Shown: in pieces, positions 8,914 through 43,687 of the stretch | How the letters are laid out: the number at the start of each line of letters is the position of its first letter | Numbering within the stretch: the stretch's first letter is position 1 | NCBI GenBank assembly: GCA_934434555.1 | Contig: CAKRZX010000010.1 | Span: 1,841 to 65,840, forward strand | DNA from: an uncultured Clostridia bacterium | Lineage (GTDB): Bacteria > Bacillota > Clostridia > Christensenellales > QALW01 | Direction: 5' to 3' | Length of the DNA: 64,000 nt | The notes under the pieces: model-generated | What the model was told of the DNA's origin: nothing | Seen by the model: the letters and a program-made list of their open reading frames with translations, nothing else | Database searches by the model: none | Position numbers and translations under genes: made by a program

Positions 8914-8927
8914 AGGAGGATAAGAAA

Positions 8928-9376: not shown

Positions 9377-9390
9377 GGAGCGTGAAAAGA

Positions 9391-10040: not shown

Positions 10041-10054
10041 AAAGGAGCGCATAT

Positions 10055-10771: not shown

Positions 10772-10800
10772 CATATAAAACTTGCGAAAAATAAATGCAT

Positions 10801-10817
10801 TTTAGGGGGGGTTTATT
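10801..10817 (+). repeat. 17-mer TTTAGGGGGGGTTTATT, copy 1 (48 nt upstream of terS)
   Basis: An exact second copy lies at 34661-34677. Confidence 0.6.
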
Positions 10818-10864
10818 TTATTTTTTTCTTGGCTTAAAATATAGAAAAAATCAAGGAGGACACT

Positions 10865-11335: not shown

Positions 11336-11348
11336 GCGGCGAATATCG

Positions 11349-19074: not shown

Positions 19075-20904
19075 GTGAGATATTCGACCATAACAGAAAT
19101 TGCAACATCAAGGGATATGATTGATGTGTTTAGGGGATATAACCACAATATTCGAATCGGTGAAAGTGAATTCTATGATATGAAGAACCTTACATCGTCA
19201 TATTACCCTGTTCTTTCGCCGAGAAATAAAAGAGGTATATATGAGTACCCTGCAAGTGAAACGGAGGTTATACACTCTCCCAACGGGCTTATAAGCAAAG
19301 ACGCATTGTGCTATGTGGACGGAACGACGCTGTATATAAATAAATTACCCGTTGCGGGACTGACATTAACGGATACGCCGAAACAACTTATATCTATGGG
19401 CGCATATATCATCATAATGCCCGATAAAAAATACGTAAATACAAAGGACCTGTCAGATTGCGGGAGCATTGAGGCAGCATTCACGTCCTCGTCAACGGTT
19501 ACATACTCGATGTGTAAAGCTGACGGCAGCGATTACGGCAAGACGCCCATAATATCAAATACCGAACCTGAAAACCCCGAGAATACGGACCTGTGGATAG
19601 ATACATCGTCAACACCGCATACATTAAAGCAGTATTCGGAAACAAGTGCCGTGTGGGTGCAGATTGCAACTACATATGTCAAGATATCCTGTGCGGGTAT
19701 TGGAGCGGCATTCAAACAGTACGATGCCGTAAAGATATCGGGAATCGACAATACAATTACACAAATGAAAGACCTTGAAGGTCAGGTAAGCCCGCTATGG
19801 GAAGTGTATCACGACAAGGACAATGCGGCGGATGATTACATTGTAGTTATTGGGATACTTGATACATCAACAACACAAACAAGTGAAATTACGGTCGAGC
19901 GGAGAATGCCGAACCTTGACTTTATTATTGAATCAAATAACCGTTTGTGGGGGTGTAGGTACGGCTTAGATATAAACGGAAATGTCGTAAATGAAATCTA
20001 TGCGTCCAAACTCGGCGATTTTAAGAACTGGAACTGCTTTATGGGACTGTCAACCGACAGTTATACTGCGTCCTGCGGTACTGACGGACAGTTTACGGGT
20101 GCAATTACACACCTCGGCTATCCTCTTTTCTTCAAAGAGAATTGCTTGCACAAGGTGTACGGAAACTATCCTGCAAACTATCAGATACAGACTACCGAAT
20201 GTCGCGGCGTAATGAAAGGCGCGGGCAAAAGTCTTGCTATCGTAAATGAAGCATTGTTTTATAAATCAAGGACGGGCGTGTGCGTTTATGACGGGTCTCT
20301 GCCCGCGGAAATATCATCAGCCTTTGGAGAAATCAAATATACCGGGGTTGATACTGATATGTCGGATACTCTCCGTAATGGTGCTGTTGCGGGGGCGCAT
20401 AACAACAAGTACTATATCTCAATGAAATCCGAAGCGGACGGAAAGTGGTATTTGTTTGTTTATGATACATCGGCGGGAATGTGGCACAAGGAAGATAACA
20501 CGCGAGTTGATACATTCTGTTCCTGTGACGGCGAACTCTATTACATAGACCGTGCAGAAGCCAAAATAAAGACGATATTAGGCTCGGGAACACAGGAAGC
20601 AGCAAAGATACAGTGGATGGCTGAAACGGGCGTTTTAGGCACGTCTATGCCTGATAAGAAGTATATATCACGGCTTAATATCCGAATGTCACTTGCAGTC
20701 GGCACGGCAGTATCGTTTTATGTGCAGTATGATTCGGAGGCAGAGTGGACAAAAATATCTGCCGTAACGGGTACAAGCCTCAGAAGTTTCACACTGACGG
20801 TAAGACCGAAACGGTGCGACCATTTCAGGCTCCGCATTAAGGGCGAGGGTGAAGCAAAGATATATTCAATAGCAAAAACGGTTGAACAGGGGAGTGATAT
20901 TTAA
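19075..20904 (+). CDS. Large virion structural protein (609 aa; tail/adaptor-associated, beta-rich)
   Basis: Called on position. GTG start with SD gggagg. A positional counterpart occurs in the second module (49417-50901). Confidence 0.45.
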   Translation: MRYSTITEIATSRDMIDVFRGYNHNIRIGESEFYDMKNLTSSYYPVLSPRNKRGIYEYPASETEVIHSPNGLISKDALCYVDGTTLYINKLPVAGLTLTDTPKQLISMGAYIIIMPDKKYVNTKDLSDCGSIEAAFTSSSTVTYSMCKADGSDYGKTPIISNTEPENPENTDLWIDTSSTPHTLKQYSETSAVWVQIATTYVKISCAGIGAAFKQYDAVKISGIDNTITQMKDLEGQVSPLWEVYHDKDNAADDYIVVIGILDTSTTQTSEITVERRMPNLDFIIESNNRLWGCRYGLDINGNVVNEIYASKLGDFKNWNCFMGLSTDSYTASCGTDGQFTGAITHLGYPLFFKENCLHKVYGNYPANYQIQTTECRGVMKGAGKSLAIVNEALFYKSRTGVCVYDGSLPAEISSAFGEIKYTGVDTDMSDTLRNGAVAGAHNNKYYISMKSEADGKWYLFVYDTSAGMWHKEDNTRVDTFCSCDGELYYIDRAEAKIKTILGSGTQEAAKIQWMAETGVLGTSMPDKKYISRLNIRMSLAVGTAVSFYVQYDSEAEWTKISAVTGTSLRSFTLTVRPKRCDHFRLRIKGEGEAKIYSIAKTVEQGSDI

Positions 20905-23551: not shown

Positions 23552-24685
23552 ATGGCATTCAGTTATAAAAGAAAAGACGCAAACGATTACGATAACGTAA
23601 GACTTGCAAGAGAAAATTTGGACGCAAACAGCAATTATAAACAGTCTGACGCTGTAACGGCGGCAATAAAGGCGCGGGACGAACACGCCGCAAACAAAAT
23701 AGGGGATTGGACGGGCGGTACATATGGACAGGCTGTTAAAGACGCGCTTGACAAAATCAACAACCGGGAGAAATTCTCTTACGATATTAACGGTGATGCA
23801 CTGTATCAGCAGTACAAGAATCAGTATATCAATCAGGGCAGACTTGCTATGGCGGACACTATCGGTCAGGCTTCGGCTATGACAGGCGGTTATGGAAATT
23901 CATATGCTGCCGCCGTAGGCAATCAGGCATATCAGGGGTACTTGCAGAAATTAAATGACGTTGTGCCGGAACTGTATCAAATGGCATTGAACAGGTACAA
24001 TCAGGAGGGACAAGACCTTAAAGATAATCTGACTATCAATCAAAACCTGTATAACACGGAATACGGAGAGTATAGGGACAGGGTTTCCGATTGGAACGCA
24101 GAACAGAGCCGACTTGATTCAAATGCATACAACGAAGCGAATCTTGATTATTCAAAGTTTACGGATAACCGTGATTATCTTGCAAAGTTATATTCTACGG
24201 CTCTTGATTGGGCTACAAACGACGCTAATACGGATTATAACAACAGATTCAACGAATATCAGCAGAAAGTATCGGATGACCAGTGGAACAAGTCGTACAA
24301 TCTGTCAAAGGCGCAGGCAAATCAGTCTGCTGCCATTGCCGCATTGCAGGATGAACTTAAACAGGATAACTACTATAAGGCGATAGCAAACATTGATGAA
24401 GTGCCGACAGAAAAATTCAAGGCGCGCAGAGTAAAGAGAGACGGTGAGTGGTGTTGGATTGTCGGAAAGAAAAAATATAGCAATTATACAGATGCATTAG
24501 ATGCCGAAAAGTATATGTATAACGGCAAAGCCTATGATACATATGAGGATGCGGTAAGTGCATATTTAGATACTTATGATTTGTCAGAAGCACAAATAAA
24601 CGATATCTTCGATAGATTGGACAAGAAAAACGGCACAAAAAGCAGTGTTGTAAAAGGCGTTATTGATTTTTTTAGAAAGGAATGA
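23552..24685 (+). CDS. N/Q/Y/D-rich virion-module protein (possible internal/ejection protein)
   Basis: 377 aa with compositional bias. Sits directly upstream of the giant gene. Confidence 0.35.
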   Translation: MAFSYKRKDANDYDNVRLARENLDANSNYKQSDAVTAAIKARDEHAANKIGDWTGGTYGQAVKDALDKINNREKFSYDINGDALYQQYKNQYINQGRLAMADTIGQASAMTGGYGNSYAAAVGNQAYQGYLQKLNDVVPELYQMALNRYNQEGQDLKDNLTINQNLYNTEYGEYRDRVSDWNAEQSRLDSNAYNEANLDYSKFTDNRDYLAKLYSTALDWATNDANTDYNNRFNEYQQKVSDDQWNKSYNLSKAQANQSAAIAALQDELKQDNYYKAIANIDEVPTEKFKARRVKRDGEWCWIVGKKKYSNYTDALDAEKYMYNGKAYDTYEDAVSAYLDTYDLSEAQINDIFDRLDKKNGTKSSVVKGVIDFFRKE

Positions 24686-24691
24686 AGATAA

Positions 24692-27600
24692 ATGGGAAAG
24701 GCGTCAGACGTTTTACGTAAGAGAAGAGCACACGGCAGTTCATATTATGCAATAGAGAATGATACAGCCCAAAGCACAAAGTCTGCTTCGGAGATTCTTA
24801 ATGAAAGGAGAATCAAAAAGTACAGAACCGAACTTAATGCACTCAATATGCAGCCGTTGTATGATTACAAGGATTTCGGGCTTTCGGAAGAAAATAAAAA
24901 ATCGTATAATGCGAGGATATCCGAGTACAAAACCGCATTGAACAATCTGAAAAAGTATGATAAATCTATCACGAACGATGATTATAACGGATACATAAAA
25001 TCCCTCGATGCATTATCGCAGAAGTTTGACGTTCTGTCTGCCTTTGACTCTGAGGACGAACTTAACAAGGCGATTGAATATCAGAAAGACAGGGAAGCAA
25101 AACTTTCGTTCGACCTCGAAAAAGGAAAAAGCGAACTTGATAACCTTAAAGATATTCAAGAGAAAATAAGAACTGCATACAAGGGAAAGTCAAAACTTAA
25201 CTATCAGGACTATGTCAACGGTTATGTTCGTGCGGGTTACGGCAAGGAAAAAGCAGAGGAACTTGCAAAAGAAGCGGTGAACAGCAATCTCACAAACGAC
25301 GCAGTTTTAGATTCTCAAATTGCGGAATATCTTGACGGGACAGGCTATAAAACCTCGGAGGAATTTAATAATGCGGTAGCCGAAAAAGAGCAGTTCTATA
25401 ATCAGGCAAAGTTGCTTCAAAATAACGAAGCACTTACAAATGATGCGCTTAGTGCTTCCGACTTTGCGGAATATGCGCAAAAGGGTAAGGAACTTGTGCC
25501 AAAAAATGATTGGTGGTATGAATGGGATAAAAACATCAATGTTGTTGAAGCGAATAGAAGAAAAGTAAGCAATGAATTGGGCTTGTACGAAAAAGTTGGC
25601 GTTATTTCGAAAGAGACAGCCACAACACCACAAAAACAGGTAGGTATAGGACGAAAAGATAAGGTTAACGCAATCCTGATGATGAACGACGAAGAGGTTC
25701 AAATATACGACTACTATTTGGGCAAATACGGGAAGAAATCGGCAGAAGAATACTACAAAACTATTGAGCCTACTCTTAATGCAAGAGCGGCAGGCATAAT
25801 ATTTGATGAAACATATAATGGAAAAATGGGAACGGAAATGCTCCACGGAGTTATTGCAGGCTTTGAGAATTTCGGTACAGGAATTAAAAATCTTCCCAAC
25901 GCAGTAGGACTTAAAGATGATGATTATATCACGCCTACGGTGAATCAGATGGTATCGGGCAGTATCCGGGAAGACCTTGCAGACAAAGGTCCTGAAATAT
26001 TAGGCAGTTCTTTGGGGCAGATAGGATATGACACAATTACCACGATATCTAATATGATTCCCAGTATAGTTGCTTCATACGCGACAGCGGGTGCTGCTTC
26101 TGCACTTGGCGTATCGGCTGCCGCGGCACAGACAGCGGGTAATATTGCCGGTAACGTTCTGCTTGGTGCTTCGGCGGCGGGAAATGAATATGCGGAAATG
26201 CTTAATTCGGGAATGAATAAAGAGCAGGCGAGAGCACTCAGTATTGTTCAGGGTACTTGGGAGGGTGCGTCTGAATACTATCTTGGTGCAATCGAGGGGC
26301 TTGGCGCAAACAAAATAGGCAAAATAATAGGCGGTACAAAGTTTGCAAATATTTTGGGAAAGGCGGGAAACGGTACAGTAAAAGCCATTCTTGACTTTTT
26401 TGGAGACGCAGCAACCGAGGGTATGGAAGAGGTCATACAGGATATCGGTTCAAGTGTTATCAACGGTGTTATGACCGATAAGTGGGAATTCTCATCAGCC
26501 GAAGAGGAAGTGTACAATTTCGTTCTCGGTGCATTGACCGCAGGAGTTATGAACGGCGGAACAGCCCTTTTCCGCGGCTCTGTGAATGCGGTAGGCAACA
26601 TAGGGGATAACGTTACGTACGGCAAAATGTACAAAGGTGATGTTAATGCGCAAAACCTACTTGTCGAAGAGGGGCTTGCGTCCGATGACGGCACAAAGAG
26701 CAAAAAACTTGCTGAGAAATACAAAAGCAGATTAAATAACGGTAAAGAACTCACGGGAAATCAGTTGCGTAAACTTATCAACGCAAATGAGCAGGCGATT
26801 ATTGCCGAAGATGTGACAAGCATTAAGTCGAATGTCTCGGAATATCTCTCGGAACTCGGAGAGACGGGGAACATTGATGAAATTTCTTCCGCTGTTGCAG
26901 ATATGCTTGTGGGCAAAGAGATATCTCCTTATCAGGAAAAAGTGCTTGAAACAAGTAAGTATGCCAGTCGTATAATAAACGAACTCAATCCCGAAAACAT
27001 TAAGAGCGGGGAGTATTCTACTTATCTCCCAAAGAAACTTGATACAAACAGAATAAATCCCGATGTTTACGGGCTTGCGGCAGAGGTAAGCAAGAATGTA
27101 TCCGCAAACGAAAGTAATAGTGCAAATGCGGGTTATTCCTTGCCGGCAGTAGGCAAAACGGTTGCGCCCAAAACAAACCTCATCGGTGCTGCCGATATCA
27201 ATGTCGAAAACCGGATTTCAGAGGATGGCAAAACGAAGTCTGTATCCACGGGAAAGGAAATCACCGTCAATAAGGAAGATGCTTTTGCTTCTGCGAAAAA
27301 CGGGGAAGTATACCTCAATACAGACCAAGGCACCGTAAAATTAAGCGATATTGAATTCGGTACAAAGAACGAGGCATTGCTTTATGAGGCATTTTCCGAT
27401 TTGAATCCGACCATAGCCAATTCGGCTATCAAGCAGTATGACGGCAAAACGCCTATAATGACTTATATCAACGGTATGCTTCAAGGCATCAATCTGTATG
27501 GAAAGTATAATTTCAAAGGCGTTGGCATTGATATATCTGCCGATTCATTCTTTGCGGAACTTTCACAGGCAGACCAAAAGCTTGCGTTGGGTCTTGGCAG

Positions 27601-30600
27601 AGAACAGGCAAACATTGAAGCAAAAAAGAATGCAGAGAAAATCAAAACAAAAGCCAAAGGTGTTACTGAAAAAGTAAAGAACAGCGGCAAAGGTACTGTA
27701 CGTTTTGAAAAAGGAGTAAAGGCGAAGAACAAGATGCAAGCAAAGGGTGTTGCTCTCGCAAAACATTTGGCTTCTGCATTGGGAATTGAAATTGTTTTCT
27801 TCGATTCAAAACAGGATGCTTCACATGAGAATCACAACGGATGGTATGACCCGAAAGATAACAGTATCCACCTTGACATCAATGCCGGGGATAATTATCA
27901 GGGAACGATTGTATATACACTCGCTCACGAACTTACCCATTTTATAGAGAAATGGTCACCGGAGAAGTATAAGACTTTTTCCGATTTCCTTATAGAACAG
28001 TACGCTGATAACGGTGTTTCGGTTGAGGACTTGCTTGCAAAACAGATGGCAAAACTGAATACGCAGGATGCAGACTATGCTATGAAAGAACTTGTGGCAG
28101 ATGCTTGCCAAACTATGCTTCTTGACAGTAAAGCGGTTGAGAAGTTAGCGGCACTCCGTCAGCAGGATGCTACTCTTTGGGAAAAGATTAAAGAGTTTAT
28201 AAGCAACCTTCTTGCAGACATTAAAGAACTGTACAATGGAATCACGCCTGATTCTGAGGAAGCAAAAGCACTTCGGGAATTGCAGAGCGGTGTGGAACAG
28301 ATTCATGCTTTGTTTGAAGATGCGGCAGTTGATGCGGCGAAGGCATATGCACAGGGTGACAGTTCAGAAGTAAGATATTCTACGAGAAAGTCGTTTGCTG
28401 AACAAGTGAATGACGTAATAAACGGAATACATAATCCCCGGTATGACCTGTATATTTCACACACACCTCAATATCTGATTGAATTAAATTTTTCGGATGA
28501 GGCTCTTTTGATGAGAAGTGGTAAGTTACGTGAAATCTTAAACAAACATTCTGAAATGAATGTTGAATTGATAAAAAAGATTCCCGAGGCATTAAAGGAC
28601 CCGTTGTTGGTGCTTAAATCCAAAACAAATCCAAGCGAGAGCGTCGTTGTAATTACGGATATTACCACATCAAAAGGCGATATGATAATTCCTGTATGGG
28701 TTAATCAGGAAGCAAACTACATAGACATTGACTTCAAAGAAAAATATACAAAGGCGAACTTTGTGGCAAGTTCTTACGGAAGAAATGTTAAAGGCTTGAT
28801 AGAATACGCATTAGAAAATGGAGGAGTACTGTACCAAAATAAGGATACAAAAAGAGTTAGAAGTTTGCTAACAAGAAATGGACTGCAATTGTCCACACCA
28901 TTAACAATTTCTAACTCCGATATTAGTATACGTCAAAACACCGAAAAAAGTCAAGGAAAAAATTCGGATTTTGAAAAAAATTTTTCAGATACGAAAACAG
29001 ACGGTGCGGATGTAAGGTATTCATTCAGAAATACTGAAACAGGTATGGCTAATAACTTCCTGATTCGTTATAATAAAGAAATGTCATCTCTCATTGAAAA
29101 AACGGGGAACGTCATCGTTGACAGTTATGATAAACTTGTCGAACAGGTGAACAGGGCATTTGATAAACCGAAAGAAAAGGCAACGCTGTATTTCGGAATT
29201 CTGGACAAAGATATTCTTTCCGATATCAATGACAAGATACCCAATTTGCCGAGAGAGATGAGCGGTTCAATATTCAAAAAAGGACGGCAGTATTCGGTTG
29301 CAGCAACATTGGACAGCATCAGACATCTTATTGATGACAAAAAGGGCATGACAAAGGAAGATGTTATTGATTATCTTGACAGATTTGCAGATGCAATTGT
29401 GGATAATGACAGTGTTTCTTTTGCAAGTTATAACAGAGGAAACTTGAAAATTGATGGGTTACTTTTTAAGAAGGCGTTCCCCGATGGCACTATTCTGACT
29501 TTTGACCTTGTATCAAACGGTAAAAAAGTTATCGGTTTGCAGACCATATATATGGATAAAGCAGGGTATAAAAAAAGAAAGTTTGCCAAGCCATTGATGA
29601 TGCAAAATGCCCCGACCAAAACGTCCGAAACGCATGGTGGTCAAACTTTCAACCCGAATGATAGCACGGTGCCCGAAAAAAGTCAAGGAATTTTTTCTGA
29701 CCGCACCACGGGCGGGAATGTCAAATTCTCTGTGCGAAGCATTGACTCGGAAGGCAAAAATCTCTCTGAGGGTCAGCAAGAATACTTCAAGGACTCAAAA
29801 GTCAGAGACGAGAACGGGAATCTGCTTGTCGTTTACCACGGAACTGATGCTGACTTCAATGTATTTGATTTTGGCAAAGCGGGTAAAAACGGCAGAGCGG
29901 AAGGCTACGGTTTCTATTTCAGCGATGATAAAGAAATAACGGGCAAATACGGTGACCGTCAAAAGGAAGTATATTTGGACATTAAAAAGCCGATGTACTC
30001 GGATAAAAAGACGCTCACCAAAAGCGAACTTAAAAAGTTTGTAAATTCCCTTATTGACTATGCGGCAGAAGAGTACGGTGAGGATTGGAAGGATTCGTTC
30101 ATTTCAAACTACATCAATACGTACGATAGCGGCGTGACGAGGACTTCCTGTGTTCGAGATTTCGTAAATGAAATTTGGGGATACAGTGAAAACGACCAAG
30201 AACTGATATACGAGATTGCAAACGGAAGCGGAATGAATTACGGCACGGATACAATGAAACCGTTTTATGACGTTTTGTTTGATTCTGTCGGAGTTGACGG
30301 CAGCATTGCGACTTGGGAACATGAAAACGGAACATCAAAAGTGTATGTTACGTTTAGGTCGGAACAATCAAAGAACACCGACAACCTCAATCCTACAAAT
30401 AACGCTGATATCAGGTATTCATTGCGTGAAGGTGCAAAAGAAGATGTAGAAAAAGCCCTGAAAGAAAAGGACTATACCGAGGATGTATGTTTAACCGAGA
30501 GCAGTCCGAGTATTATTGCAAGCCAAAATGGCGTTAGAAATCTGCCTATGCTGATGAAAGCATCACACATCAGAGAGAATGTTTTTACAAAAGAAGAGGC

Positions 30601-33600
30601 TCTTGAAAGGGGCTTGAAAGCAGATTCTCATACCCATTATCACGGACTTGGGGAGGAGTTGTTCCTGAAAATAATCGGCGGATTGGACGAAGTGCAACTT
30701 GCTTACCGAGGTACTAAAAATGCAGATAATGCAGCGAGAAGAGAGAATTATTTCCTGTTGATATCACAGTATAAAGACGCAAAAGGAAATATTGTAAACG
30801 TGCCTGTTTATATCAATGAAAAAGCACAGTATAACCGTATATTTGTTGATACAAACAAAATAGCGACTGTATTTGGCAGAGATAATTTCTTTGAGTATAT
30901 CCGAAAAGAAGTTCAAAACGGAAATCTTGCAAGGATAAAGAACAAGGATAAAATTAAAGAAGCCGACACGGCGTGGAAAACACAGCCTGAATCGACTTCT
31001 GTTAATAGAAACATCAACCAAGTCAGTGAACTGAAGGCACTAATCGCCAGCAGTTATAACAAGAGTGCTTCTGATAACAGAAGCGATCGGGTCGGTGACC
31101 GGACGGTTCAAAAGACCGAAGGGTACGGCTCGAATGTTTCTGATAATATTATACTCCAAAAGTCCGAGAAAAGTCAAGAAAAATTTTCCGTGCGCAATCC
31201 TGATGCCACAGATAACCGCACGTTGCTTTCGAATGCGCTTGCTTCTGCGGCTCAGAATGCGATAGAGAAGAAGTACATTGAGCAGTATCAAGAGAAGATA
31301 GACACCGTAAATGCGGAGCAGGAGAAACTTGCAGACCTTAAAGCCAAGATTAAGGAACTTTCGTTTGCGCCCGGCAAAAGGAACACGGAGCAAATCCGTA
31401 ATCTGCAAGACCAAGCCATAAAGACTGCCAACCGCATCAATATCTACGATAAGCAACTTCTTCGGTTAGAGGCTATGAAGCCATTGAAAGACGTTGTGGA
31501 GAGGGAAAGAATACTTGCAGGGAAGAAGGCTGAACAAGTGGGCAGAGAAGCCCTGAACGCTTATAAAGAGCGTGCTGCCAAGAACGAAAAGGAACTTATG
31601 AACAAGTACAATGAGAGGATTAAGCGTGGTGTTGAAGGCAGGAACAAAACGGTAATCAAGAACAAGATACGGAATGTTATCGGGCAACTTAACACAATGC
31701 TTAAAAGCGGTAAAGACAGAGCAAATGTAAAGACCGAACTCAAAGGTACAGTCAGACAGGCTCTTGATACGGCAACGGTTCTCTTTTCGTCACTTGATGC
31801 CGAGGATATCTATGCGGTAGGTATCACTGCGGTTACCAATGATGAGCAAGCACTCCTTTCAAGGTATGGCGAACTTCTCGGTAAGCGCAATGCAGAAACC
31901 GATGCTACGGAACTTGAAAAGATTAAAGGGCAAATTTCAAGGATTGAGTATAAACTCAAAGATGTTTTTGTAAGAGAGCGTAACCGTTTGCAGAAAACAT
32001 ATGTAGACATCGCAATCGATGAACTCATCAATGCGTATAAGGTGACCGCTGAGTCTGAAAAGATTTATGTTTCCGAGGCATACGACCAAAACATTGTAGA
32101 CCGCCTTGAAAGCATAAAGAAAGACCTTAAAGGCACGACTGTTGACGATATGACCAAAGAGCAACTTCAATCGGTGTATGAAGCGTACAAACTTATCCTG
32201 CATTCGGTAAGAGAGGCTAACAAACTGCACCGGGAGGGCAGGAGCGAGTCCGTATCGGATAATGCCAATGCCGTTGTGGAAGAGGTAAGGAAAGTCGGCA
32301 GAACAAAGGATGACAGCCCGAAGATTGTTGATTCCGCAAAGACTGCTACGTGGAATGAGTTAAAGCCTATATATGCCTTTGAAAGAATAGGTTCTCCCAC
32401 GCTTATGAATCTCTATCACGATGTCGAAACTGCCGAATCAACATGGGGCAGAGACATCTATGAAGCGAGTAATTTCATAAACGATATGCGGGAAAAGTAC
32501 GGATATGATTCTTGGGATTTCAAAACAAGACATACCGTTGATTTAAGTTCGGGTGCAAAAATCAAACTTTCACTTCAACAAATGATGTCAATATATGCAT
32601 ATTCAAAGCGTGAACAAGCGATTGACCATATGCAGAAGGGCGGTTTTGTATTTGCCAACAAGGCATTCAAGAAGACAAAGAAGGGCTTGATTGAATACGT
32701 ACCGACACAATCCCGGTCATTTAAGATATCTGCTGAGGATGTGGCAACGATAAAGGAGTTAATCAAAGACCAAATCGGCTACGTTGACGAAATGCAAACG
32801 TATTTATCGGCGGCAATGGCTGATAAGGGCAATGAGGCTTCCAATATCCTGTACGGAATAGACCTGTTCAAGGAAAAGGCGTATTTCCCGTTGCGGTCAT
32901 CTTACGATTACCTGCAACAGCAGAATACTCCTGCCGGGGAAGTATCGCTTAAAAACAACGGAATGACCAAAGAGACAACGCCTCACGCAAGCAATCCCAT
33001 TATCCTTGACGATTTCGATTCGGTGTGGTCGGCTCATGTGGACAAGATGTCTGTATACCATGCGTTCGTAGTGCCTCTTGATAACTTCAATAAGGTGTTC
33101 AATTATACGGATGGATTCAACACTGATGATTCGGGAGCATCGTCTGTCAGAACGGTTCTCAAAGGCATTTTCGGAAACGGCGTTAACGAGTACATCAGCA
33201 ATATGTTGGTAGACCTCAACGGCGGTGCTATGACTGACAGGGTAAGCAATCCGTTTATCGGTATGGTCGGAAAGTTCAAGAAAACTGCGGTTGCTGCATC
33301 GCTGTCGGTTATTGTTCAGCAGCCTACGGCTATACTGAGGGCAATGGCGTTGGTAGACCCGAAGTATTTCAAGAAGCACGATAAGTTAAAGCACGGCGAG
33401 AAGTGGGAACAACTTAAAAAGTACGCTCCTGTGGCGGTAATAAAAGAAATCGGCGGCTTTGATGTCGGAAACGGCAGACAGGCAGTGTCCTACCTTGAAG
33501 GCAGTAAATCCCTTATGGATAAAGCCGATGATTTTCTGATGCGAGGTGCAGGACTTGCCGATGAAATAGGTTGGAATGCTATTTGGGATGCCGTGCAGAA

Positions 33601-34651
33601 TGAAGTTGCCGCCAAGAAAGGCTTGACGGGCGAGGAACTCTTAATTGAAGCGGGTAAGCGCTTTGAAGAAGTTGTAAGATATACACAGGTATATGACTCG
33701 ACACTTTCAAGAAGCGGCTTTATGCGTTCGAAGAGCGATATCTTAAAAATGGCTACTGCCTTTATGGGAGAGCCTACAACATCGTTTAATATGCTTTATA
33801 ATGCCGTTCTGCAAGCCAAGCGAGGCACAATGACAAAGGGAAAGGCGTTAAGGGCTATTACGGCGGTAGTTGTATCAATTATAGCGGCAAATGCTCTAAA
33901 ATCAATAGTCGGAGCGGGTCGTGACGATGATGACGATGAAACGCTTGTTGAAAAGTATATTGAATCTTTTACTTCCAACTTTATAAGTGATATATTTGTC
34001 CCGAATATGCTCCCGTTCATCAGGGATATTATCAGCATATTTGAAGGATGGGATGTAAGCCGTACCGATATGGACTTAATCAGCGACCTTAAAGATGCTA
34101 TTGACAGTCTTTCAAAGGACGGCTCAACATACCGAAAGGTCGAAGACTTCGGCGGTGCAGTGGCAAATCTTTTCGGTGTGCCGTTAAAGAACATAATGAG
34201 AGATTTCCGTTCGATTTACAATCTGTTTGCAACGCCGTTCAACGGTGAAAGAACAGATTCCGAAGGCTTATGGAGCGCATTCCTTAAAGGGTGGTCAGGC
34301 AAAGGTAAGTCTGAAATAGAGCAGTATTTATCATACGTCAAAAACGGTAATCCATCAAAAGCAAAAGAACTCTACGGTGAAATGCTTGATAAAAAGAAGC
34401 AGGAAATCGCAGATGACAGAGCGGCAGAGGGCAAGAAGGAACTTACGGAAAAAGAGGTTGAGAAAAAAGCCAAGAGCAGTGTTAAGTCGTCTATTTCTGC
34501 TAAGTACCGAGAAGCATACATCGAGGCGTACAAGAAGAAAGACGATGCGACAATGGCTCAAATCCGCAAGGAAATGTATGCAACAGGACTTTACGGAAGT
34601 GTTGACGCGGTTATTGAAACCTGCCGAAATTGGCTTAAAGAGTACAAATGA
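24692..34651 (+). CDS. Giant (3,319 aa) polyvalent virion protein with a zincin HExxH module, an ART-like YHGT module, three paralogous modules, a coiled coil and hydrophobic segments
   Basis: Uninterrupted ORF with SD. HELTH at 27926-27940. YHGT at 29834-29845. Recurrent linker motif (see findings). Confidence 0.85.
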   Translation: MGKASDVLRKRRAHGSSYYAIENDTAQSTKSASEILNERRIKKYRTELNALNMQPLYDYKDFGLSEENKKSYNARISEYKTALNNLKKYDKSITNDDYNGYIKSLDALSQKFDVLSAFDSEDELNKAIEYQKDREAKLSFDLEKGKSELDNLKDIQEKIRTAYKGKSKLNYQDYVNGYVRAGYGKEKAEELAKEAVNSNLTNDAVLDSQIAEYLDGTGYKTSEEFNNAVAEKEQFYNQAKLLQNNEALTNDALSASDFAEYAQKGKELVPKNDWWYEWDKNINVVEANRRKVSNELGLYEKVGVISKETATTPQKQVGIGRKDKVNAILMMNDEEVQIYDYYLGKYGKKSAEEYYKTIEPTLNARAAGIIFDETYNGKMGTEMLHGVIAGFENFGTGIKNLPNAVGLKDDDYITPTVNQMVSGSIREDLADKGPEILGSSLGQIGYDTITTISNMIPSIVASYATAGAASALGVSAAAAQTAGNIAGNVLLGASAAGNEYAEMLNSGMNKEQARALSIVQGTWEGASEYYLGAIEGLGANKIGKIIGGTKFANILGKAGNGTVKAILDFFGDAATEGMEEVIQDIGSSVINGVMTDKWEFSSAEEEVYNFVLGALTAGVMNGGTALFRGSVNAVGNIGDNVTYGKMYKGDVNAQNLLVEEGLASDDGTKSKKLAEKYKSRLNNGKELTGNQLRKLINANEQAIIAEDVTSIKSNVSEYLSELGETGNIDEISSAVADMLVGKEISPYQEKVLETSKYASRIINELNPENIKSGEYSTYLPKKLDTNRINPDVYGLAAEVSKNVSANESNSANAGYSLPAVGKTVAPKTNLIGAADINVENRISEDGKTKSVSTGKEITVNKEDAFASAKNGEVYLNTDQGTVKLSDIEFGTKNEALLYEAFSDLNPTIANSAIKQYDGKTPIMTYINGMLQGINLYGKYNFKGVGIDISADSFFAELSQADQKLALGLGREQANIEAKKNAEKIKTKAKGVTEKVKNSGKGTVRFEKGVKAKNKMQAKGVALAKHLASALGIEIVFFDSKQDASHENHNGWYDPKDNSIHLDINAGDNYQGTIVYTLAHELTHFIEKWSPEKYKTFSDFLIEQYADNGVSVEDLLAKQMAKLNTQDADYAMKELVADACQTMLLDSKAVEKLAALRQQDATLWEKIKEFISNLLADIKELYNGITPDSEEAKALRELQSGVEQIHALFEDAAVDAAKAYAQGDSSEVRYSTRKSFAEQVNDVINGIHNPRYDLYISHTPQYLIELNFSDEALLMRSGKLREILNKHSEMNVELIKKIPEALKDPLLVLKSKTNPSESVVVITDITTSKGDMIIPVWVNQEANYIDIDFKEKYTKANFVASSYGRNVKGLIEYALENGGVLYQNKDTKRVRSLLTRNGLQLSTPLTISNSDISIRQNTEKSQGKNSDFEKNFSDTKTDGADVRYSFRNTETGMANNFLIRYNKEMSSLIEKTGNVIVDSYDKLVEQVNRAFDKPKEKATLYFGILDKDILSDINDKIPNLPREMSGSIFKKGRQYSVAATLDSIRHLIDDKKGMTKEDVIDYLDRFADAIVDNDSVSFASYNRGNLKIDGLLFKKAFPDGTILTFDLVSNGKKVIGLQTIYMDKAGYKKRKFAKPLMMQNAPTKTSETHGGQTFNPNDSTVPEKSQGIFSDRTTGGNVKFSVRSIDSEGKNLSEGQQEYFKDSKVRDENGNLLVVYHGTDADFNVFDFGKAGKNGRAEGYGFYFSDDKEITGKYGDRQKEVYLDIKKPMYSDKKTLTKSELKKFVNSLIDYAAEEYGEDWKDSFISNYINTYDSGVTRTSCVRDFVNEIWGYSENDQELIYEIANGSGMNYGTDTMKPFYDVLFDSVGVDGSIATWEHENGTSKVYVTFRSEQSKNTDNLNPTNNADIRYSLREGAKEDVEKALKEKDYTEDVCLTESSPSIIASQNGVRNLPMLMKASHIRENVFTKEEALERGLKADSHTHYHGLGEELFLKIIGGLDEVQLAYRGTKNADNAARRENYFLLISQYKDAKGNIVNVPVYINEKAQYNRIFVDTNKIATVFGRDNFFEYIRKEVQNGNLARIKNKDKIKEADTAWKTQPESTSVNRNINQVSELKALIASSYNKSASDNRSDRVGDRTVQKTEGYGSNVSDNIILQKSEKSQEKFSVRNPDATDNRTLLSNALASAAQNAIEKKYIEQYQEKIDTVNAEQEKLADLKAKIKELSFAPGKRNTEQIRNLQDQAIKTANRINIYDKQLLRLEAMKPLKDVVERERILAGKKAEQVGREALNAYKERAAKNEKELMNKYNERIKRGVEGRNKTVIKNKIRNVIGQLNTMLKSGKDRANVKTELKGTVRQALDTATVLFSSLDAEDIYAVGITAVTNDEQALLSRYGELLGKRNAETDATELEKIKGQISRIEYKLKDVFVRERNRLQKTYVDIAIDELINAYKVTAESEKIYVSEAYDQNIVDRLESIKKDLKGTTVDDMTKEQLQSVYEAYKLILHSVREANKLHREGRSESVSDNANAVVEEVRKVGRTKDDSPKIVDSAKTATWNELKPIYAFERIGSPTLMNLYHDVETAESTWGRDIYEASNFINDMREKYGYDSWDFKTRHTVDLSSGAKIKLSLQQMMSIYAYSKREQAIDHMQKGGFVFANKAFKKTKKGLIEYVPTQSRSFKISAEDVATIKELIKDQIGYVDEMQTYLSAAMADKGNEASNILYGIDLFKEKAYFPLRSSYDYLQQQNTPAGEVSLKNNGMTKETTPHASNPIILDDFDSVWSAHVDKMSVYHAFVVPLDNFNKVFNYTDGFNTDDSGASSVRTVLKGIFGNGVNEYISNMLVDLNGGAMTDRVSNPFIGMVGKFKKTAVAASLSVIVQQPTAILRAMALVDPKYFKKHDKLKHGEKWEQLKKYAPVAVIKEIGGFDVGNGRQAVSYLEGSKSLMDKADDFLMRGAGLADEIGWNAIWDAVQNEVAAKKGLTGEELLIEAGKRFEEVVRYTQVYDSTLSRSGFMRSKSDILKMATAFMGEPTTSFNMLYNAVLQAKRGTMTKGKALRAITAVVVSIIAANALKSIVGAGRDDDDDETLVEKYIESFTSNFISDIFVPNMLPFIRDIISIFEGWDVSRTDMDLISDLKDAIDSLSKDGSTYRKVEDFGGAVANLFGVPLKNIMRDFRSIYNLFATPFNGERTDSEGLWSAFLKGWSGKGKSEIEQYLSYVKNGNPSKAKELYGEMLDKKKQEIADDRAAEGKKELTEKEVEKKAKSSVKSSISAKYREAYIEAYKKKDDATMAQIRKEMYATGLYGSVDAVIETCRNWLKEYK

Positions 34652-34721: not shown

Positions 34722-36974
34722 ATGCAAAACACAATCAGCATAACAGTAAGCGCAGACCATAGGGTGTGCTGCCCGGAGTGGGACATAGCGCGAACGGGGG
34801 AGAATGAATGCACACGCTTTGATATAACGCTTGCGGAAGAATTGAGTACATACAGCGCATATATCGATTTTGAGAAGCCTGACGGCGAAAAATTCAAAAC
34901 GCCACGGCTGAATATCGAAAATAACAAAATAACCTACGACTTGCCGTCAGCCGTGCTTGACGTAAAGGGGAATCTGCTTGTGCAGTTGGTTCTCCAAAAT
35001 GACGAGGGCGAGATATGGAAAAGCAACGTGCAGAAGTTCTATGTGAGCGAATCAGTAAACGCAACGGAAGCGATAGCCGAAAAGGACGATTTTGTGGCGG
35101 ATATCGAGAAGCGTGTGGACGGGAAGTTGGATAAGGACATAGCGGGGTCAAAAGGTTTTAAGTTAACGGAGAGTAATTTCCATTATGGGTGTTACGGTTT
35201 AATCATATTGAGAAAAACATATGCTGATACTACAATCCGTACAACACGTAAAATAACTTGCGAACGATATGGCTCAACACAAGAGTTTACCACTATATCG
35301 TCAACACCTGACGGAAGAGCATTCCTTACAAACGAAGTACCTTATCTGTATTCAGAAGACTTATACAGTTTTACTAAGATTACTTTTAAGGACTCTTCGG
35401 GTAGTGTAATTAAGACTATATCTGCAAGTAGTAACACAACCCCTGATTTAATTGATTGGTATGGCTGCGTAACAGATTGGACTACAAATCCCACTACTGA
35501 TATGTTAACGTATATATCGACTTCCGAATCGAATTGGATGCCGGAAGAGGACAAAATCGGCGCATTCTATTACGTGGATATTCCGAGCGATGTTATCACG
35601 GAGAACCTTACAAACGAGCCTACCTGCATAAAGATAGACGCAAACTTTGATTCGGGATTAAGACAGAACTATATCGACTGGGGCGATGACGGCACACTTA
35701 CAACTGCTATTGCAGACAGTTGCCTTAAAGCAAATTACAAGGTCGGGGATAATTATCTGACTTTATCTCTTAAAAAGAACAAAAGAGCAGGACAAGGTTT
35801 AGAACAGAAGCCTGTGTTCAAAGATACGTCCAACATACATTTCCCTGACCGTCCGGATATCGGTAATGTAACGGTAGGCGAGGGGTTTAACGTTGTTGCG
35901 GGCAAAGAGAATAAAGCATTGTTTGATTACGGATTCTCTTCGGGCAAGAACAATGCTTCACTCGGCAGATACAGCATAACAGGCGGTACGAGAAATACTG
36001 CGGCTTATGCCGGTATAACGCTGGGCAATCATAATATCGTTCTTGGACAGAGTGGCTTTGCGGCGGGTGCAACAAACCTTATAGGGCGTGGCGGCAGTAA
36101 CGGCGTTACACTTGGCTCGGAAAATGTTATTAACGGTAAAAACGGAATAGCGGGAGGCAGAGCAAATAATGTATCCGGCATTTACGGTGTAGCGTTGGGC
36201 TATGGAAATAAGGTAAAAGGCAAAAGCAGTTCTGCCTTAGGCTATACAAACAGTCTGAATGATGACAGCGAGTTCGCCGCAGGCACGGGCAATACGCTTT
36301 CGGGCGAAAATGCCGTGGCAATAGGTCGAGCAAATCAATCTTACGGGAAGTCAAATACTTGTATTGGTTACGGCAACGTAGTTAACAAGGGTGTATGCGG
36401 AACAGCAATCGGTAATGTAAATCACGTCTATGCCAATTATGCCTTTGCGGCGGGTAACAATAACACCGTCAATGCTGACGCATCGGGTGTTATAGGCTTA
36501 AACCTTAATGTAAAAAATTCATCCGAAGCAGGTGTTTATGGTAATGTAGGGCATCTCTTAGGGGGCAGTAATAATACAATAAACGGCGGACGCAACCTAA
36601 TAATGGGCGGACAGTCGAATATCGCATTATTGCACGATTCTATCGTAATCGGAAATAACCTTAAAGATACGTCAAAAGGCTTTGGCAAGGCTATTTTCGG
36701 AAACTACAACGCCGAGACGGGCGCAAGTATTATGCTTGGTGCGGGCAATCAAGATAACCGTAAAAATGTTTTTGAAGTCTATAATGACGGTGCTGTAAAG
36801 ACGCCCAACGCAAGAGCGTACAAAACCGACGGCACGGATGCAAAACGTCTTACGACGGTTGAGTTTGTCGAAGGTAAAATTGCAGATGCACTGATACTGA
36901 AATCCCCCAACGGGACGAAATACAAATTGACCGTAGCGGACGATGGCACATTAAGCACGGCAAAAGTGATTTAA
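34722..36974 (+). CDS. Tail fibre / receptor-binding protein (BppU-like N-domain, YadA-head-like Gly/Asn repeat region)
   Basis: N-terminus ...FDITLAEELSTYSAYIDFEKPDGEKF...ITYDLPSAVLDVKGNL. Central degenerate repeats GxxNxAxGxxNxV/I (nt ~35880-36720). Confidence 0.65.
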   Translation: MQNTISITVSADHRVCCPEWDIARTGENECTRFDITLAEELSTYSAYIDFEKPDGEKFKTPRLNIENNKITYDLPSAVLDVKGNLLVQLVLQNDEGEIWKSNVQKFYVSESVNATEAIAEKDDFVADIEKRVDGKLDKDIAGSKGFKLTESNFHYGCYGLIILRKTYADTTIRTTRKITCERYGSTQEFTTISSTPDGRAFLTNEVPYLYSEDLYSFTKITFKDSSGSVIKTISASSNTTPDLIDWYGCVTDWTTNPTTDMLTYISTSESNWMPEEDKIGAFYYVDIPSDVITENLTNEPTCIKIDANFDSGLRQNYIDWGDDGTLTTAIADSCLKANYKVGDNYLTLSLKKNKRAGQGLEQKPVFKDTSNIHFPDRPDIGNVTVGEGFNVVAGKENKALFDYGFSSGKNNASLGRYSITGGTRNTAAYAGITLGNHNIVLGQSGFAAGATNLIGRGGSNGVTLGSENVINGKNGIAGGRANNVSGIYGVALGYGNKVKGKSSSALGYTNSLNDDSEFAAGTGNTLSGENAVAIGRANQSYGKSNTCIGYGNVVNKGVCGTAIGNVNHVYANYAFAAGNNNTVNADASGVIGLNLNVKNSSEAGVYGNVGHLLGGSNNTINGGRNLIMGGQSNIALLHDSIVIGNNLKDTSKGFGKAIFGNYNAETGASIMLGAGNQDNRKNVFEVYNDGAVKTPNARAYKTDGTDAKRLTTVEFVEGKIADALILKSPNGTKYKLTVADDGTLSTAKVI

Positions 36975-38731: not shown

Positions 38732-39823
38732 TTAAACAGTCAGGGTGTCGTGAGAATAGTCGGGAGACATCCATTCTAATTCAGAAAGACTGCCGATAGT
38801 GTTGATAATATCGGTTTCTTTATCGCCTTTCCAATGGGGTTTCCACGTCATAACATAATCGAAAATTTGCTTTTCGGTCACTTGATTATTTCTTTTACAC
38901 AGTTCATCATAAGAGAATAATACTGTTGCTATAATCTCTGCCTGCTCTGTGCTTGTTATTCTGCTTAACAAGTCAAAAGTTTTATCTGCACGGGAGATTT
39001 CGTCCTGCGTATATGCCGAAGCATCAAACTTGAAATCGGGAGAAACAACAGTTTCAACCATTCGCCCAAGATTCCGTTCAGATATAAGATTTGCATTTGA
39101 AAGGGCAGCCACTGCTTGTTTTGCTTCGTTTGAATAAGGACCGTAACTGCCCTCGTTGAAAACAAAGCCTGTCGGAATACCCGCATAAGTGAGCAAATAG
39201 CATATCTTTTGAAATATTGTCCGCCCGACATTAAGTGAATATCTGTCGTTGTTCAATTTTCTGATGACATACAGAATCAAGTACCAATACTTGTTAATCT
39301 GTTGACGCTGTTTACCGATTATTTCTCGCGGAGATTCAATTTCTTTGGTTGCCAAAAATCTCTCGGTAACTTGCTCGGGAGCAGTGCCGTAAGGTGCGTA
39401 AATCTCAACAGCAATAGGTAAATCTTTAAGTTTTGAATACATCAAGGGACCCACCACATCCCACGGAAGCCCGCCATTACCGCAACCCAAAGGCGGAAAG
39501 GCAACAGAGGTAATACCTAACGATTCGTAATTATCTATAAACCAGTCCAATCCGGATATGATGTAAGACAGTTTTGACGGAGAACGCCAATCGTTTTTAG
39601 TGGGAAAATTGATTATTGAAACACCGCAGAGGTCTTTGTGACAATACGGTTTCCCCGGCTGAACGGTTCCGTTTTTGCACATTGCAACATATTCCGAAAA
39701 CATTGCCGGATATCTCTTCTTGAATTCAAGAGCGATGCCCTTGCCCATAACGCCCACACAGTTGACTGTGTTAACCAAAGTGGTGGCTTTGCTCTCAAAA
39801 ATATTACCGATTTTTATAATCAT
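38732..39823 (-). CDS. darG: DarG-like antitoxin: N-terminal macrodomain plus C-terminal toxin-binding region
   Basis: GNIFESKATTLVNTVNCVGVMGKGIALEFKKRYP...INFPTKNDWRSPSKL...VAFPPLGCGNGGLPW. Overlaps darT by 20 nt. Confidence 0.8.
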   Translation of the reverse strand: MIIKIGNIFESKATTLVNTVNCVGVMGKGIALEFKKRYPAMFSEYVAMCKNGTVQPGKPYCHKDLCGVSIINFPTKNDWRSPSKLSYIISGLDWFIDNYESLGITSVAFPPLGCGNGGLPWDVVGPLMYSKLKDLPIAVEIYAPYGTAPEQVTERFLATKEIESPREIIGKQRQQINKYWYLILYVIRKLNNDRYSLNVGRTIFQKICYLLTYAGIPTGFVFNEGSYGPYSNEAKQAVAALSNANLISERNLGRMVETVVSPDFKFDASAYTQDEISRADKTFDLLSRITSTEQAEIIATVLFSYDELCKRNNQVTEKQIFDYVMTWKPHWKGDKETDIINTIGSLSELEWMSPDYSHDTLTV

Positions 39824-40472
39824 ATTCGTTGCCTCCTTCCTTGCAATAAAACACCTTAGGTTTGACTGTTATGTTTTTATCAAAACCCAGTTGTTTTAAT
39901 TTTTCCTCATTTTCTTTGCTTACCACGCACGCACCGACAATATATTCATACGGAATACAAGCAGGGATAAGTATTTCTGCGCATTTTGATGCGCTCTTAA
40001 AACTTTTTGCATACGGGTTTTGGTCATTCCAATTTTGTGCAAACACCAAATCAAAATTTATGTTTCTGATGCCTTCCTCAGGGGAATAAAACCGAACCAT
40101 ATTGCTTGCGGCATTTTTGTCTGATAAAACGCAACCCTCGATATTCAGGACAGACTGGTCAATAGCCAAAATGCATATGTCTTGTGCCTCGTCCTGCCTC
40201 TTGTACAACATTGGATTATGATACGTGAAATATAAATTTGCGTAACTGTGAAGCCTTCCTCCGTTTGGAATGTGCACGTTGTCACGACGGTCCTGGACGG
40301 AAGAAAGTGCTATTGATTTGTGAGGTAAAGAGTAAGTCTTATCAAAACTTAATATACCGTGTTGTATTACTGACGGAATATTTTTTATAGGCATTATGTT
40401 ATAAAAATACTTACTCCGCCCTGCCGATTCTGTTTTAAGCAATGAAATTAAATCAGTCATAATCCGTTGCAC
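39804..40472 (-). CDS. darT: DarT-like DUF4433 DNA ADP-ribosyltransferase toxin
   Basis: IKNIPSVIQHGILS, HSYANLYFTYHNPMLY, VLSDKNAAS and KCAEILIPACIPYEYIVG match the DUF4433 motif order. The start is GTG 40472 or ATG 40460. Confidence 0.75.
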   Translation of the reverse strand: MQRIMTDLISLLKTESAGRSKYFYNIMPIKNIPSVIQHGILSFDKTYSLPHKSIALSSVQDRRDNVHIPNGGRLHSYANLYFTYHNPMLYKRQDEAQDICILAIDQSVLNIEGCVLSDKNAASNMVRFYSPEEGIRNINFDLVFAQNWNDQNPYAKSFKSASKCAEILIPACIPYEYIVGACVVSKENEEKLKQLGFDKNITVKPKVFYCKEGGNEYDYKNR

Positions 40473-40690: not shown

Positions 40691-40782
40691 TGGCGGAGAG
40701 AAGGGGATTCGAACCCCTGAATGGGTATTAGCCATTACACGATTTCCAATCGTGCGCCTTAGACCAGCTCAGCCATCTCTCC
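40691..40782 (-). tRNA. tRNA-Ser(GGA), long variable arm, encoded CCA
   Basis: The reverse complement GGAGAGATGGCTGAGCTGGTCTAAGGCGCACGATTGGAAATCGTG...GGGGTTCGAATCCCCTTCTCTCCGCCA folds as a class II tRNA with anticodon loop TTGGAAA. A hairpin with a T-run (40648-40681) lies downstream. Confidence 0.9.
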
Positions 40783-43225: not shown

Positions 43226-43687
43226 GTGATGAACGACATATATTCAAAAAAGGTTCGCCCTCATTTGAAGCAGGCGGAACTGCTTGCGTTTTGCGGTAAA
43301 ACCGAAGAGGAAATAGCGGAGTTTTTTGATATAAAAATAAATACGCTTAAAAAATACCGACGGGAACACGCCGAACTTGACGAGGCGCTGTCGGCGGGGA
43401 AGAATTCTTCGGCACAGGTGATGAAAGCGTTTTTTAAGCGTGCCTGCGGATATACCGCACAGGAAGAGACCTGTGAGTTCAAGGGTAAGAAAAACTCAGA
43501 CGGAGTTATTGAGGATGAACAGGTGGTAAAAAAGACGGTAAAAAAAGACGTTCCGCCGGATTTGAACGCCATAAAGTGGTGGCTTGACGCCACGGGCGCA
43601 AAGAATTCCGACGGCAGCGAACCTACGGTAGAGGAAGCGAGGGAAATGCTGCTTGAAAAACAGAGAATCATTGAAGAAGATAAATGA
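43226..43687 (+). CDS. Terminase small subunit (module 2)
   Basis: HTH (EEIAEFFDIKINTLKKYRREH), then ...KAFFKRACGY. Upstream of TerL. An ATG is at 43229. Confidence 0.6.
   Translation: MMNDIYSKKVRPHLKQAELLAFCGKTEEEIAEFFDIKINTLKKYRREHAELDEALSAGKNSSAQVMKAFFKRACGYTAQEETCEFKGKKNSDGVIEDEQVVKKTVKKDVPPDLNAIKWWLDATGAKNSDGSEPTVEEAREMLLEKQRIIEEDK

Follow-up and report, generated by a model that had tools for sequence, protein, structure and literature searches.

The window analyzed here is a stretch of 64,000 nucleotides (nt) from an uncultured Clostridia bacterium (NCBI GenBank assembly GCA_934434555.1, contig CAKRZX010000010.1, positions 1,841 to 65,840 of the forward strand). It contains a prophage in which a single open reading frame (ORF) encodes a giant protein of 3,319 amino acids (aa). 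Judged by its domain content, this is a phage-type polyvalent protein in the sense of Iyer et al. (Iyer, Burroughs, Anand, de Souza and Aravind, 2017, J Bacteriol, PMC5512222), made of a constant chassis and an exchangeable array of effector domains. The reading that we favor, with a probability of about 72%, is that of a giant virion-internal carrier, packed in the capsid of a temperate and probably short-tailed phage of ∼40 kb that infects spore-forming gut Clostridia, and bearing four effector cassettes on its chassis.

Conflict-related domains of at least two distinct kinds are combined in this one polypeptide: an ADP-ribosyltransferase (ART) domain of the ART-PolyVal family, two copies of MuF_C and a zincin. 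The gene lies in a prophage beside portal-terminase and other virion genes, and the domain architecture varies among orthologues, the central zone (aa 1230-2150) being common to only 1-13 of 51 full-length relatives. An initial annotation, made from the letters and an ORF list, had suggested that the polyvalent concept fits this gene, and profile searches bear this out. A Pfam scan of the giant protein returned ART-PolyVal and the two MuF_C domains above threshold, with PBECR3 and a weak MPTase-PolyVal match below it, and the profile searches returned no ordinary tape-measure or tail-lysin domain.

This kind of protein is already known, and its family is present in databases, where it is unannotated and apparently undescribed. 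By presenting the combination as unrecognized, the initial annotation overstated its novelty: a matching PHROG exists (phrog_22978), relatives bear PolyVal names in UniProt, and a giant ejection protein has already been proposed for phage phi24B. New are the chassis-plus-cassette architecture at the scale of a family, a C-terminal core that is absent from Pfam and the PDB, an orphan module (cassette 2) and a short peptide motif at the junctions between cassettes.

Chassis, cassettes and junction motif

The ORF is unbroken, as first annotated: the ORF list gives 3,319 codons plus a stop codon at 24692..34651 (+), and the translation has one terminal stop. Landmarks fall at exact positions in the translation (AGAASALG at aa 466; HELTH at aa 1079, nt 27926; YHGT at aa 1715, nt 29834). 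The protein is laid out as follows, with the basis of each feature in brackets.

24692..34651 (+): whole giant ORF (ORF list, translation)
24692..25771 (+): N-terminal charged region, aa 1-360 (composition, weak family conservation)
25772..27688 (+): Gly/Ala-rich N-terminal scaffold, conserved, aa 361-999 (composition; shared by relatives)
27689..28369 (+): predicted divergent gluzincin, MPTase-PolyVal-like, aa 1000-1226 (conservation of HExxH and Glu; phrog_87)
28370..28387 (+): junction motif 1, VRYSTR, aa 1227-1232 (motif scan)
28388..29011 (+): cassette 1, MuF_C (PBECR-type), aa 1233-1440 (Pfam, above cut-off)
29012..29029 (+): junction motif 2, VRYSFR, aa 1441-1446 (motif scan)
29030..29719 (+): cassette 2, orphan module, aa 1447-1676 (TLDSIRH...DYLDR core in homologues)
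29720..29737 (+): junction motif 3, VKFSVR, aa 1677-1682 (motif scan)
29738..30409 (+): cassette 3, ART-PolyVal ADP-ribosyltransferase domain with an insertion of ∼57 aa, aa 1683-1906 (Pfam)
30410..30427 (+): junction motif 4, IRYSLR, aa 1907-1912 (motif scan; D-I-R-Y-S conserved after ART domains)
30428..31177 (+): cassette 4, second MuF_C, aa 1913-2162 (Pfam; BLASTP to cassette 1)
31178..31195 (+): junction motif 5, EKFSVR, aa 2163-2168 (motif scan; homology to relatives picks up here)
31196..32038 (+): charged helical connector, aa 2169-2449 (composition; shared by relatives)
32039..34648 (+): C-terminal core, aa 2450-3319, the family hallmark (phrog_22978; shared by relatives)

The extent of the family was established by an exhaustive profile search, in which a trimmed alignment of the core was compared with 1.84 billion representatives. 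It comprises 5,531 clusters at 50% identity with E <= 1e-3, of which 3,794 pass E <= 1e-30. The best matches are about 2,400-4,700 aa long and always carry the core at their C terminus. A pattern scan of one genome per species recovered 198 loci, nearly all in metagenome-assembled genomes (MAGs) of gut Oscillospirales or Clostridia, and IMG/VR provided 124 further viral contigs. The phage contigs of both sets cluster at 38-46 kb, which is the likely genome size. Since they top out there, the giant gene amounts to about a quarter of the phage, in agreement with what had been estimated for the prophage.

Two of the loci (L020 and L042) come from MAGs classified as Coriobacteriaceae and Bacteroidales, against Clostridia for all the others; these two assignments are probably binning errors rather than an indication of host range. 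On one GTDB contig (JAFTXX010000014.1; loci L033 and L034, 64040-86346 and 104226-122254), two giant genes of 3,217 aa occupy the same locus position ∼40 kb apart, which points to prophages in tandem or in duplicate, or else to a repeat in the assembly.

A conservation map, in which the 51 full-length relatives were laid onto the giant protein, separates constant from variable regions. The core is shared by all 51, the zincin by 41, the Gly/Ala part by 20-30 and the connector by 15-37. In the variable zones of 34 relatives and of the window protein, taken together, ART-PolyVal is found in 22 of 35, MuF_C in 12 and LPD3 in 10, followed by LPD23 (4), PBECR3 (3), PBECR5 (2) and a DUF6782 peptidase (2). 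All domains in the variable zones of the relatives belong to the polyvalent-protein vocabulary, and it is cassette content that drives the length of family members. With the polyvalent proteins of Iyer et al. (2017), the giant protein shares the assembly of many conflict-type domains in one giant chain beside portal-terminase genes, the vocabulary (MPTase, polyvalent-clade ART, MuF-C/PBECR and LPDs) and a content that varies between orthologues. It differs in that the core, the Gly/Ala part and cassette 2 match no Pfam family derived from that work.

The borders of the cassettes carry a short peptide motif. The pattern [RK][YF]S.R occurs five times in the giant protein, against 0.09 expected from shuffles, and the copies (at aa 1228, 1442, 1678, 1908 and 2164) coincide with the exact borders of the four cassettes. 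In 41 family proteins the consensus is D-[IV]-[RK]-[YF]-S-x-[RK]-[ED], preceded by a low-complexity stretch rich in N, P, T and D. In the same proteins a relaxed form, [IVLM][RKQ][YF]S, is found 1.29 times per 1,000 aa within the variable zone, compared with 0.07 times elsewhere, an enrichment of ∼18-fold. An independent, non-redundant set of 125 giants yielded the same consensus, and in these the motif occurs only within the 300-1,600 residues that precede the core. Of 90 other metagenomic proteins, 39 likewise have the motif beside their ART-PolyVal domains, and the D-I-R-Y-S that follows ART domains is conserved to the same degree as the catalytic residues. BLAST homology of the giant protein to 144 relatives begins and ends at motif positions, so that the motif marks the points of cassette exchange. 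The five copies use different synonymous codons and have no DNA in common beyond the motif codons, for which reason a DNA-level recombination signal or a recent duplication was rejected; selection therefore acts on the peptide. A limited literature search found no published description of the motif, and the word 'linker' does not occur in the main text of PMC5512222.

One protein (P0112), at first sight a free-standing ART with a motif on either side, was rejected, its contig proving to be a polyvalent ORF broken by frameshifts. On the contig ENA ERZ1645045 ctg5077 (locus L087), at ∼7800-12000, frameshifts split a polyvalent ORF with multiple ART-PolyVal domains into many small called genes. 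The 'stand-alone' ART proteins from contigs of this type are artefacts or pseudogene fragments.

Polymorphic toxins, such as CdiA with its VENN motif and Rhs proteins with their DPxGL junctions, are likewise built of a constant part for delivery and of cassettes that vary, with a short peptide at the junction. The giant protein resembles them in its chassis, its variable cassettes and its conserved junction peptide at the points where homology breaks. Unlike these toxins, it holds several cassettes in series and internally, its carrier would be a phage virion protein, and no immunity genes were seen.

Domains of the chassis and of the cassettes

The zincin site annotated at nt 27926-27940 was recovered as HELTH (aa 1079-1083), and H1079, E1080 and H1083 are invariant across a 40-member family alignment. 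A putative third zinc ligand, E1133 (KELVAD; nt 28088-28090), lies ∼50 residues downstream and is at least 90% conserved in the 40 sequences; an HExxH followed by a conserved Glu corresponds to the gluzincin arrangement. The segment matches the metallo-protease family phrog_87 at 1e-7, its profile finds a weak match in the PDB to the protease domain of ArdC (E = 0.03), and MPTase-PolyVal (PF18818) is matched at E < 0.01 in only 5 of the 40 family members. The assignment of aa 1000-1226 as a divergent, MPTase-PolyVal-like gluzincin thus draws on more than Pfam. Loss of the HExxH or YHGT residues in close homologues, which the initial annotation had named as evidence against its reading, was not seen: HExxH is kept in 49/51, 86/107 and 122/124 members of three sets of relatives, and the His of the ART domain in 94%.

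This ART domain is cassette 3. The isolated segment scores 68.5 bits against ART-PolyVal (PF18760; cut-off 31.2) over aa 1706-1902, and conserved columns of the family are matched by H1716 (the 94% column), Y1742, Y1761, D1869, Q1892 and K1894. The ART-like module that had been recognized from YHGT at nt 29834 therefore stands, but not its description as H-Y-E: the third catalytic residue looks like Asp rather than Glu. D1869 (GVDG) is kept in 22 of 23 aligned ART sequences, and an Asp at this position fits the H-Y-D clade, to which polyvalent ARTs are ascribed by Iyer et al. (PMC5512222). With its catalytic-type residues kept, cassette 3 is a predicted enzyme.

Cassettes 1 and 4 both match MuF_C (PF18819; cut-off 27.6), with 55.9 bits over aa ∼1282-1385, where PBECR3 also matches below threshold, and 34.2 bits over aa ∼1980-2093. 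They are related to each other (BLASTP E = 2e-6, 25% identity). Of the three mutually similar modules first described, the first and third are thus confirmed as kin, while the second is not demonstrably related to them. Relatedness emerged from pairwise comparison of segments, a self-BLAST of the whole protein giving no off-diagonal matches. The [KR]H helix signature that was said to unite the three modules was not confirmed: it corresponds to no conserved column in 30 MuF_C modules, and BLASTP pairs the KH of module 1 with another His of module 3. MuF_C and ART-type effectors are also tied to the phage head in MuF-fused effectors and toxins of the Mu gp30 and SPP1 gp7 type. In contrast to these, the giant protein holds MuF_C as internal cassettes of a far larger chain, and no Phage_Mu_F (MuF) N-terminal domain was found among its Pfam matches at E <= 1, which places it outside that class.

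Cassette 2 has no Pfam or PHROG match and no BLASTP similarity to the MuF_C domains of cassettes 1 and 4. Its alignment compared with the 30 MuF_C modules by hhalign gave E = 0.056 at a probability of 1%, which does not make it a MuF_C member. A word-indexed search found only four homologues, with a conserved TLDSIRH...DYLDR core, and the AlphaFold model built from the 5-sequence alignment was unusable (pLDDT 35).

The chassis begins with a charged region (33-38% charged residues over aa 1-360) that is poorly conserved, being common to 1-14 of the 51 full-length relatives (fewer than 10 for the first 300 aa), and that matches no family in Pfam or PHROG. The Gly/Ala-rich stretch described in the initial annotation is present, with 27-29% G+A over aa 401-600, and includes an uncharged stretch of small residues at aa 445-497 (nt 26024-26182). 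Neither a tape-measure nor any other Pfam family was matched by this scaffold in 31 homologues, bar one weak SseC match, and it has no relative in the PDB. The connector (aa 2169-2449) is by composition charged, helical and poor in Pro and Gly; it had been called a long coiled coil, for which a crude heptad test gave no clear support.

The C-terminal region, annotated as containing hydrophobic helices, is a conserved core of ∼870 aa. It is mainly helical and includes one strongly hydrophobic helix (aa 3055-3073, nt 33854-33910), the strongest of the protein, after which the family consensus has an acidic cluster, RDDDEDE. The core matches phrog_22978 at 7.8e-235 (profile length 3,513 positions). 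Its AlphaFold model (pLDDT 77, pTM 0.72) adds a small beta element to the helices. The core has no Pfam or NCBIfam family and no significant fold match in the PDB (best E = 0.24). The BFVD library of viral structures gave 83 significant matches, which are C-terminal pieces of giant proteins from uncultured phages, named in UniProt after their PolyVal, MuF-C, LPD or nuclease domains. More broadly, PDB sequence and fold searches were empty for the whole protein, the core, the N-terminal region, the 609-aa neighbor described below and the portal, and NCBIfam had no match for any unassigned part of the giant protein or for the neighbor genes.

Virion operon and proposed packaging and delivery

The giant gene is embedded in a late operon, the neighbors of which are as follows.

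from 11298 (+): TerL, late operon
from 12761 (+): P22-like portal, late operon
from 17309 (+): major head protein, late operon
19075..20904 (+): 609-aa protein, phrog_511 'internal virion protein' (PHROG; synteny)
from 21611 (+): tail protein, phrog_372 (PHROG)
23552..24685 (+): 377-aa protein, rich in N, Q and Y, without family, directly upstream of the giant gene
34722-36974 (+): 750-aa protein, downstream of the giant gene
from 36986 (+): small phrog_1863 protein, candidate holin by position (PHROG)
from 37237 (+): endolysin, late operon

The genes of the 609-aa and 377-aa proteins lie upstream of the giant gene and on the same strand in 40 and 41 related loci, respectively, and both proteins are candidate packaging or ejection partners. 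The initial annotation recognized no tail tube, sheath or tape-measure set here; consistent with this, the neighbor genes scanned included none for a tail tube, sheath, terminator, chaperone or tape measure. From these missing genes the phage is probably short-tailed, which would account for the lack of a tail tube. As a marker of morphology, the 640-aa tail protein was rejected, because this distal-tail module is exchangeable and its homologues include the last tail gene of siphoviruses. The 750-aa protein has no PHROG match and a sub-threshold match to YadA-head repeats (E = 0.009), and its earlier label as a tail fibre was not confirmed.

There are precedents for the packaging and delivery of such giants. 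The temperate Stx2 podovirus phi24B encodes gp47, a polyvalent protein of 2,811 aa that is abundant in virions by mass spectrometry, invisible in the cryo-electron microscopy map and proposed to be an encapsidated ejection protein (bioRxiv 10.64898/2026.04.10.717836). Like the protein of the window, gp47 is a giant polyvalent protein of a temperate phage and has HExxH motifs; it differs in its domains (LPD5, LPD1 and LPD38), in the absence of the junction motif and in its Gram-negative host. The virion RNA polymerase of phage N4 (gp50, 3,500 aa) is, according to Iyer et al. (PMC5512222), encapsidated and injected, with a zincin in its C-terminal part that is needed for encapsidation; the Dar proteins of P1 are given there as a further precedent. 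The junction motif is absent from gp50, and the giant protein falls outside the N4-like virion RNA polymerases: no RNA polymerase family was matched in Pfam, and tblastn against phages gave no N4-like match.

By analogy with phi24B gp47 and N4 gp50, we infer a sequence of packaging, ejection, membrane activity, proteolytic processing and effector action. The core, which we propose to be an encapsidation and ejection element, would direct the protein into the capsid interior, possibly together with the N-terminal part. At infection, the protein would leave through the portal and tail alongside the DNA, and its hydrophobic segments may then help it through the membrane, by crossing or breaching it. 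Once inside the newly infected cell, the cassettes would act against host defence or for takeover, likely by ADP-ribosylation and by RNA binding or cleavage. The built-in zincin may first separate the cassettes at the junction motifs; release of domains by a zincin is part of the published polyvalent-protein concept of Iyer et al. (2017).

The junction motif, in our proposal, would serve for recognition, most simply as a cleavage site. Thermolysin-like zincins favor a hydrophobic residue after the cut, and cleavage there could suit such an enzyme. The motif could alternatively be a structural boundary element or the target of another protease. A bolder version of the carrier reading holds that the motif is a dedicated processing signal, at which the zincin or a partner protease frees the cassettes after ejection, and that the core is a new encapsidation and ejection module across thousands of gut phages, the two forming a programmable polyprotein injection system in which cassettes are swapped at cleavage sites. 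We advance this version tentatively and would wager against it as a whole.

Several observations weigh against the carrier reading or one of its steps. Homology of the core to phi24B gp47 was rejected at the profile level, with tblastn also negative, and homology to the C-terminal encapsidation region of N4 gp50 was rejected by hhalign, so that both precedents are analogies only. The match of the zincin to MPTase-PolyVal is below threshold, at 14-22 bits against a cut-off of 27.5. HExxH is missing from 21 of 107 relatives, yet 20 of these retain the junction motif, which speaks against a strict need for the built-in zincin in cleavage. Across 30 aligned MuF_C modules there is no polar column of catalytic type at 70% and no conserved His, which makes RNase activity of the MuF_C copies doubtful; Mu's own MuF-C is described by Iyer et al. 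(PMC5512222) as an inactive PBECR. The Gly/Ala stretch is just moderately hydrophobic (top 19-residue Kyte-Doolittle mean of 1.36), which bears on the membrane step. Finally, the short tail is deduced from absent genes, and the 640-aa tail protein has siphovirus homologues.

One alternative is a mainly structural role. The giant could be a virion-packaged ejection or pilot protein that forms a conduit across the Gram-positive envelope, with the zincin acting on wall or host proteins, the cassettes as accessories and the motif as a domain-boundary element. The chassis (N-terminal part, zincin, connector and core) is much better conserved than the cassettes, the strongest hydrophobic helix is located in the core, all but one of the 21 relatives without HExxH keep the motif, one homologue weakly matches the SseC translocon family, and the authors of the phi24B study suggest a conduit role for gp47. 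On the other hand, no homology to ejection proteins of T7 or P22 type was found, the PDB fold and sequence searches being empty, and the low-complexity linkers before the motif, with its conservation at the level of catalytic residues, suit a recognition site. A conduit also overlaps with the carrier reading rather than excluding it. As a separate account, we judge it improbable.

A second possibility is that the phage is long-tailed and the giant serves as its tape measure, with enzymatic domains acquired in addition; tail length would then depend on the Gly/Ala and helical parts, while the domains would act at the envelope. Such a protein could be expected to have the giant size, the Gly/Ala-rich hydrophobic stretch and the long charged helical region seen here, and the 640-aa neighbor resembles the last tail gene of siphoviruses. 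However, no tape-measure family of Pfam or PHROGs matches the giant protein or 31 homologues, and the tube, terminator, sheath and chaperone genes were not found among the scanned neighbors. The giant gene also comes after the distal tail genes instead of before them, family lengths (2,464-4,691 aa) follow cassette content, and the domains are of the cytoplasm-directed polyvalent type (ART, PBECR). Together these observations make a tape measure very unlikely. We give equally little credence to the idea that the phage does not deliver the protein, which would instead be a polymorphic toxin or a polyvalent protein domesticated by the host and would act from the prophage, for instance against competing bacteria or incoming elements: cassettes are swapped at conserved junctions as in polymorphic toxins, the prophage carries a DarT-Macro defense pair, and Iyer et al. 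(PMC5512222) describe polyvalent proteins of a third class, encoded away from mobile elements, but the gene sits inside a late virion operon, on the same strand and with virion neighbors conserved in ∼40 loci, it recurs on viral contigs of 38-46 kb, and neither a MuF N-terminal domain nor a secretion signal domain was detected in the protein, nor an immunity gene next to its own.

Polyvalent proteins are regarded as the first weapons that a phage brings into the infected cell, and very few have been studied experimentally. The window provides a clean example from a very large, uncharacterized family of gut Clostridia phages, in which a fixed chassis is combined with an exchangeable array whose junctions bear a short conserved peptide. 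Should the motif serve as a signal for cleavage or docking, giants of this kind could be divided by a simple rule into their functional units, and new anti-defense modules, of which the orphan cassette 2 may be an example, could be sought with it; it might also open a route for custom cargo into phage particles. The C-terminal core is a good target for the definition of a new protein family and for structures that show how a 350-kDa protein is stored in a capsid and expelled from it.

Lysogeny genes and neighboring elements

Upstream of the virion genes, the prophage encodes an ImmA/HTH lysogeny pair as well as YqaJ, RecT, SSB and Dcm genes. A C-5 cytosine DNA methylase at 5849-7063, beside the YqaJ, RecT and SSB genes, is likely a second anti-restriction function of the same element. 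At the right end of the prophage, on the reverse strand (38732-40472), DarT (PF14487, 1.9e-41) is paired with a Macro-domain, DarG-like protein. The pair looks like a DarTG defense or toxin-antitoxin cargo carried by the prophage, and the same phage thus encodes both a DarTG-like pair and an ADP-ribosyltransferase domain in a protein of its virion module. To the right of the pair lie a tRNA-Ser (40691-40782) and the host gene SpoIIE (40846-43077); this succession of the DarT-Macro pair, tRNA-Ser and host SpoIIE marks the element as a prophage whose host is an endospore-forming Firmicute. The tRNA-Ser region has no att repeat inside the window, and the left end of the prophage was thus not located.

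A second, unrelated phage-like region starts just after SpoIIE and occupies 43200-64000 of the window, with a large terminase at 43653-45059 and a P22/SU10-like portal at 45080-46936. Only its terminase resembles the counterpart in the first phage, and weakly so (24%).

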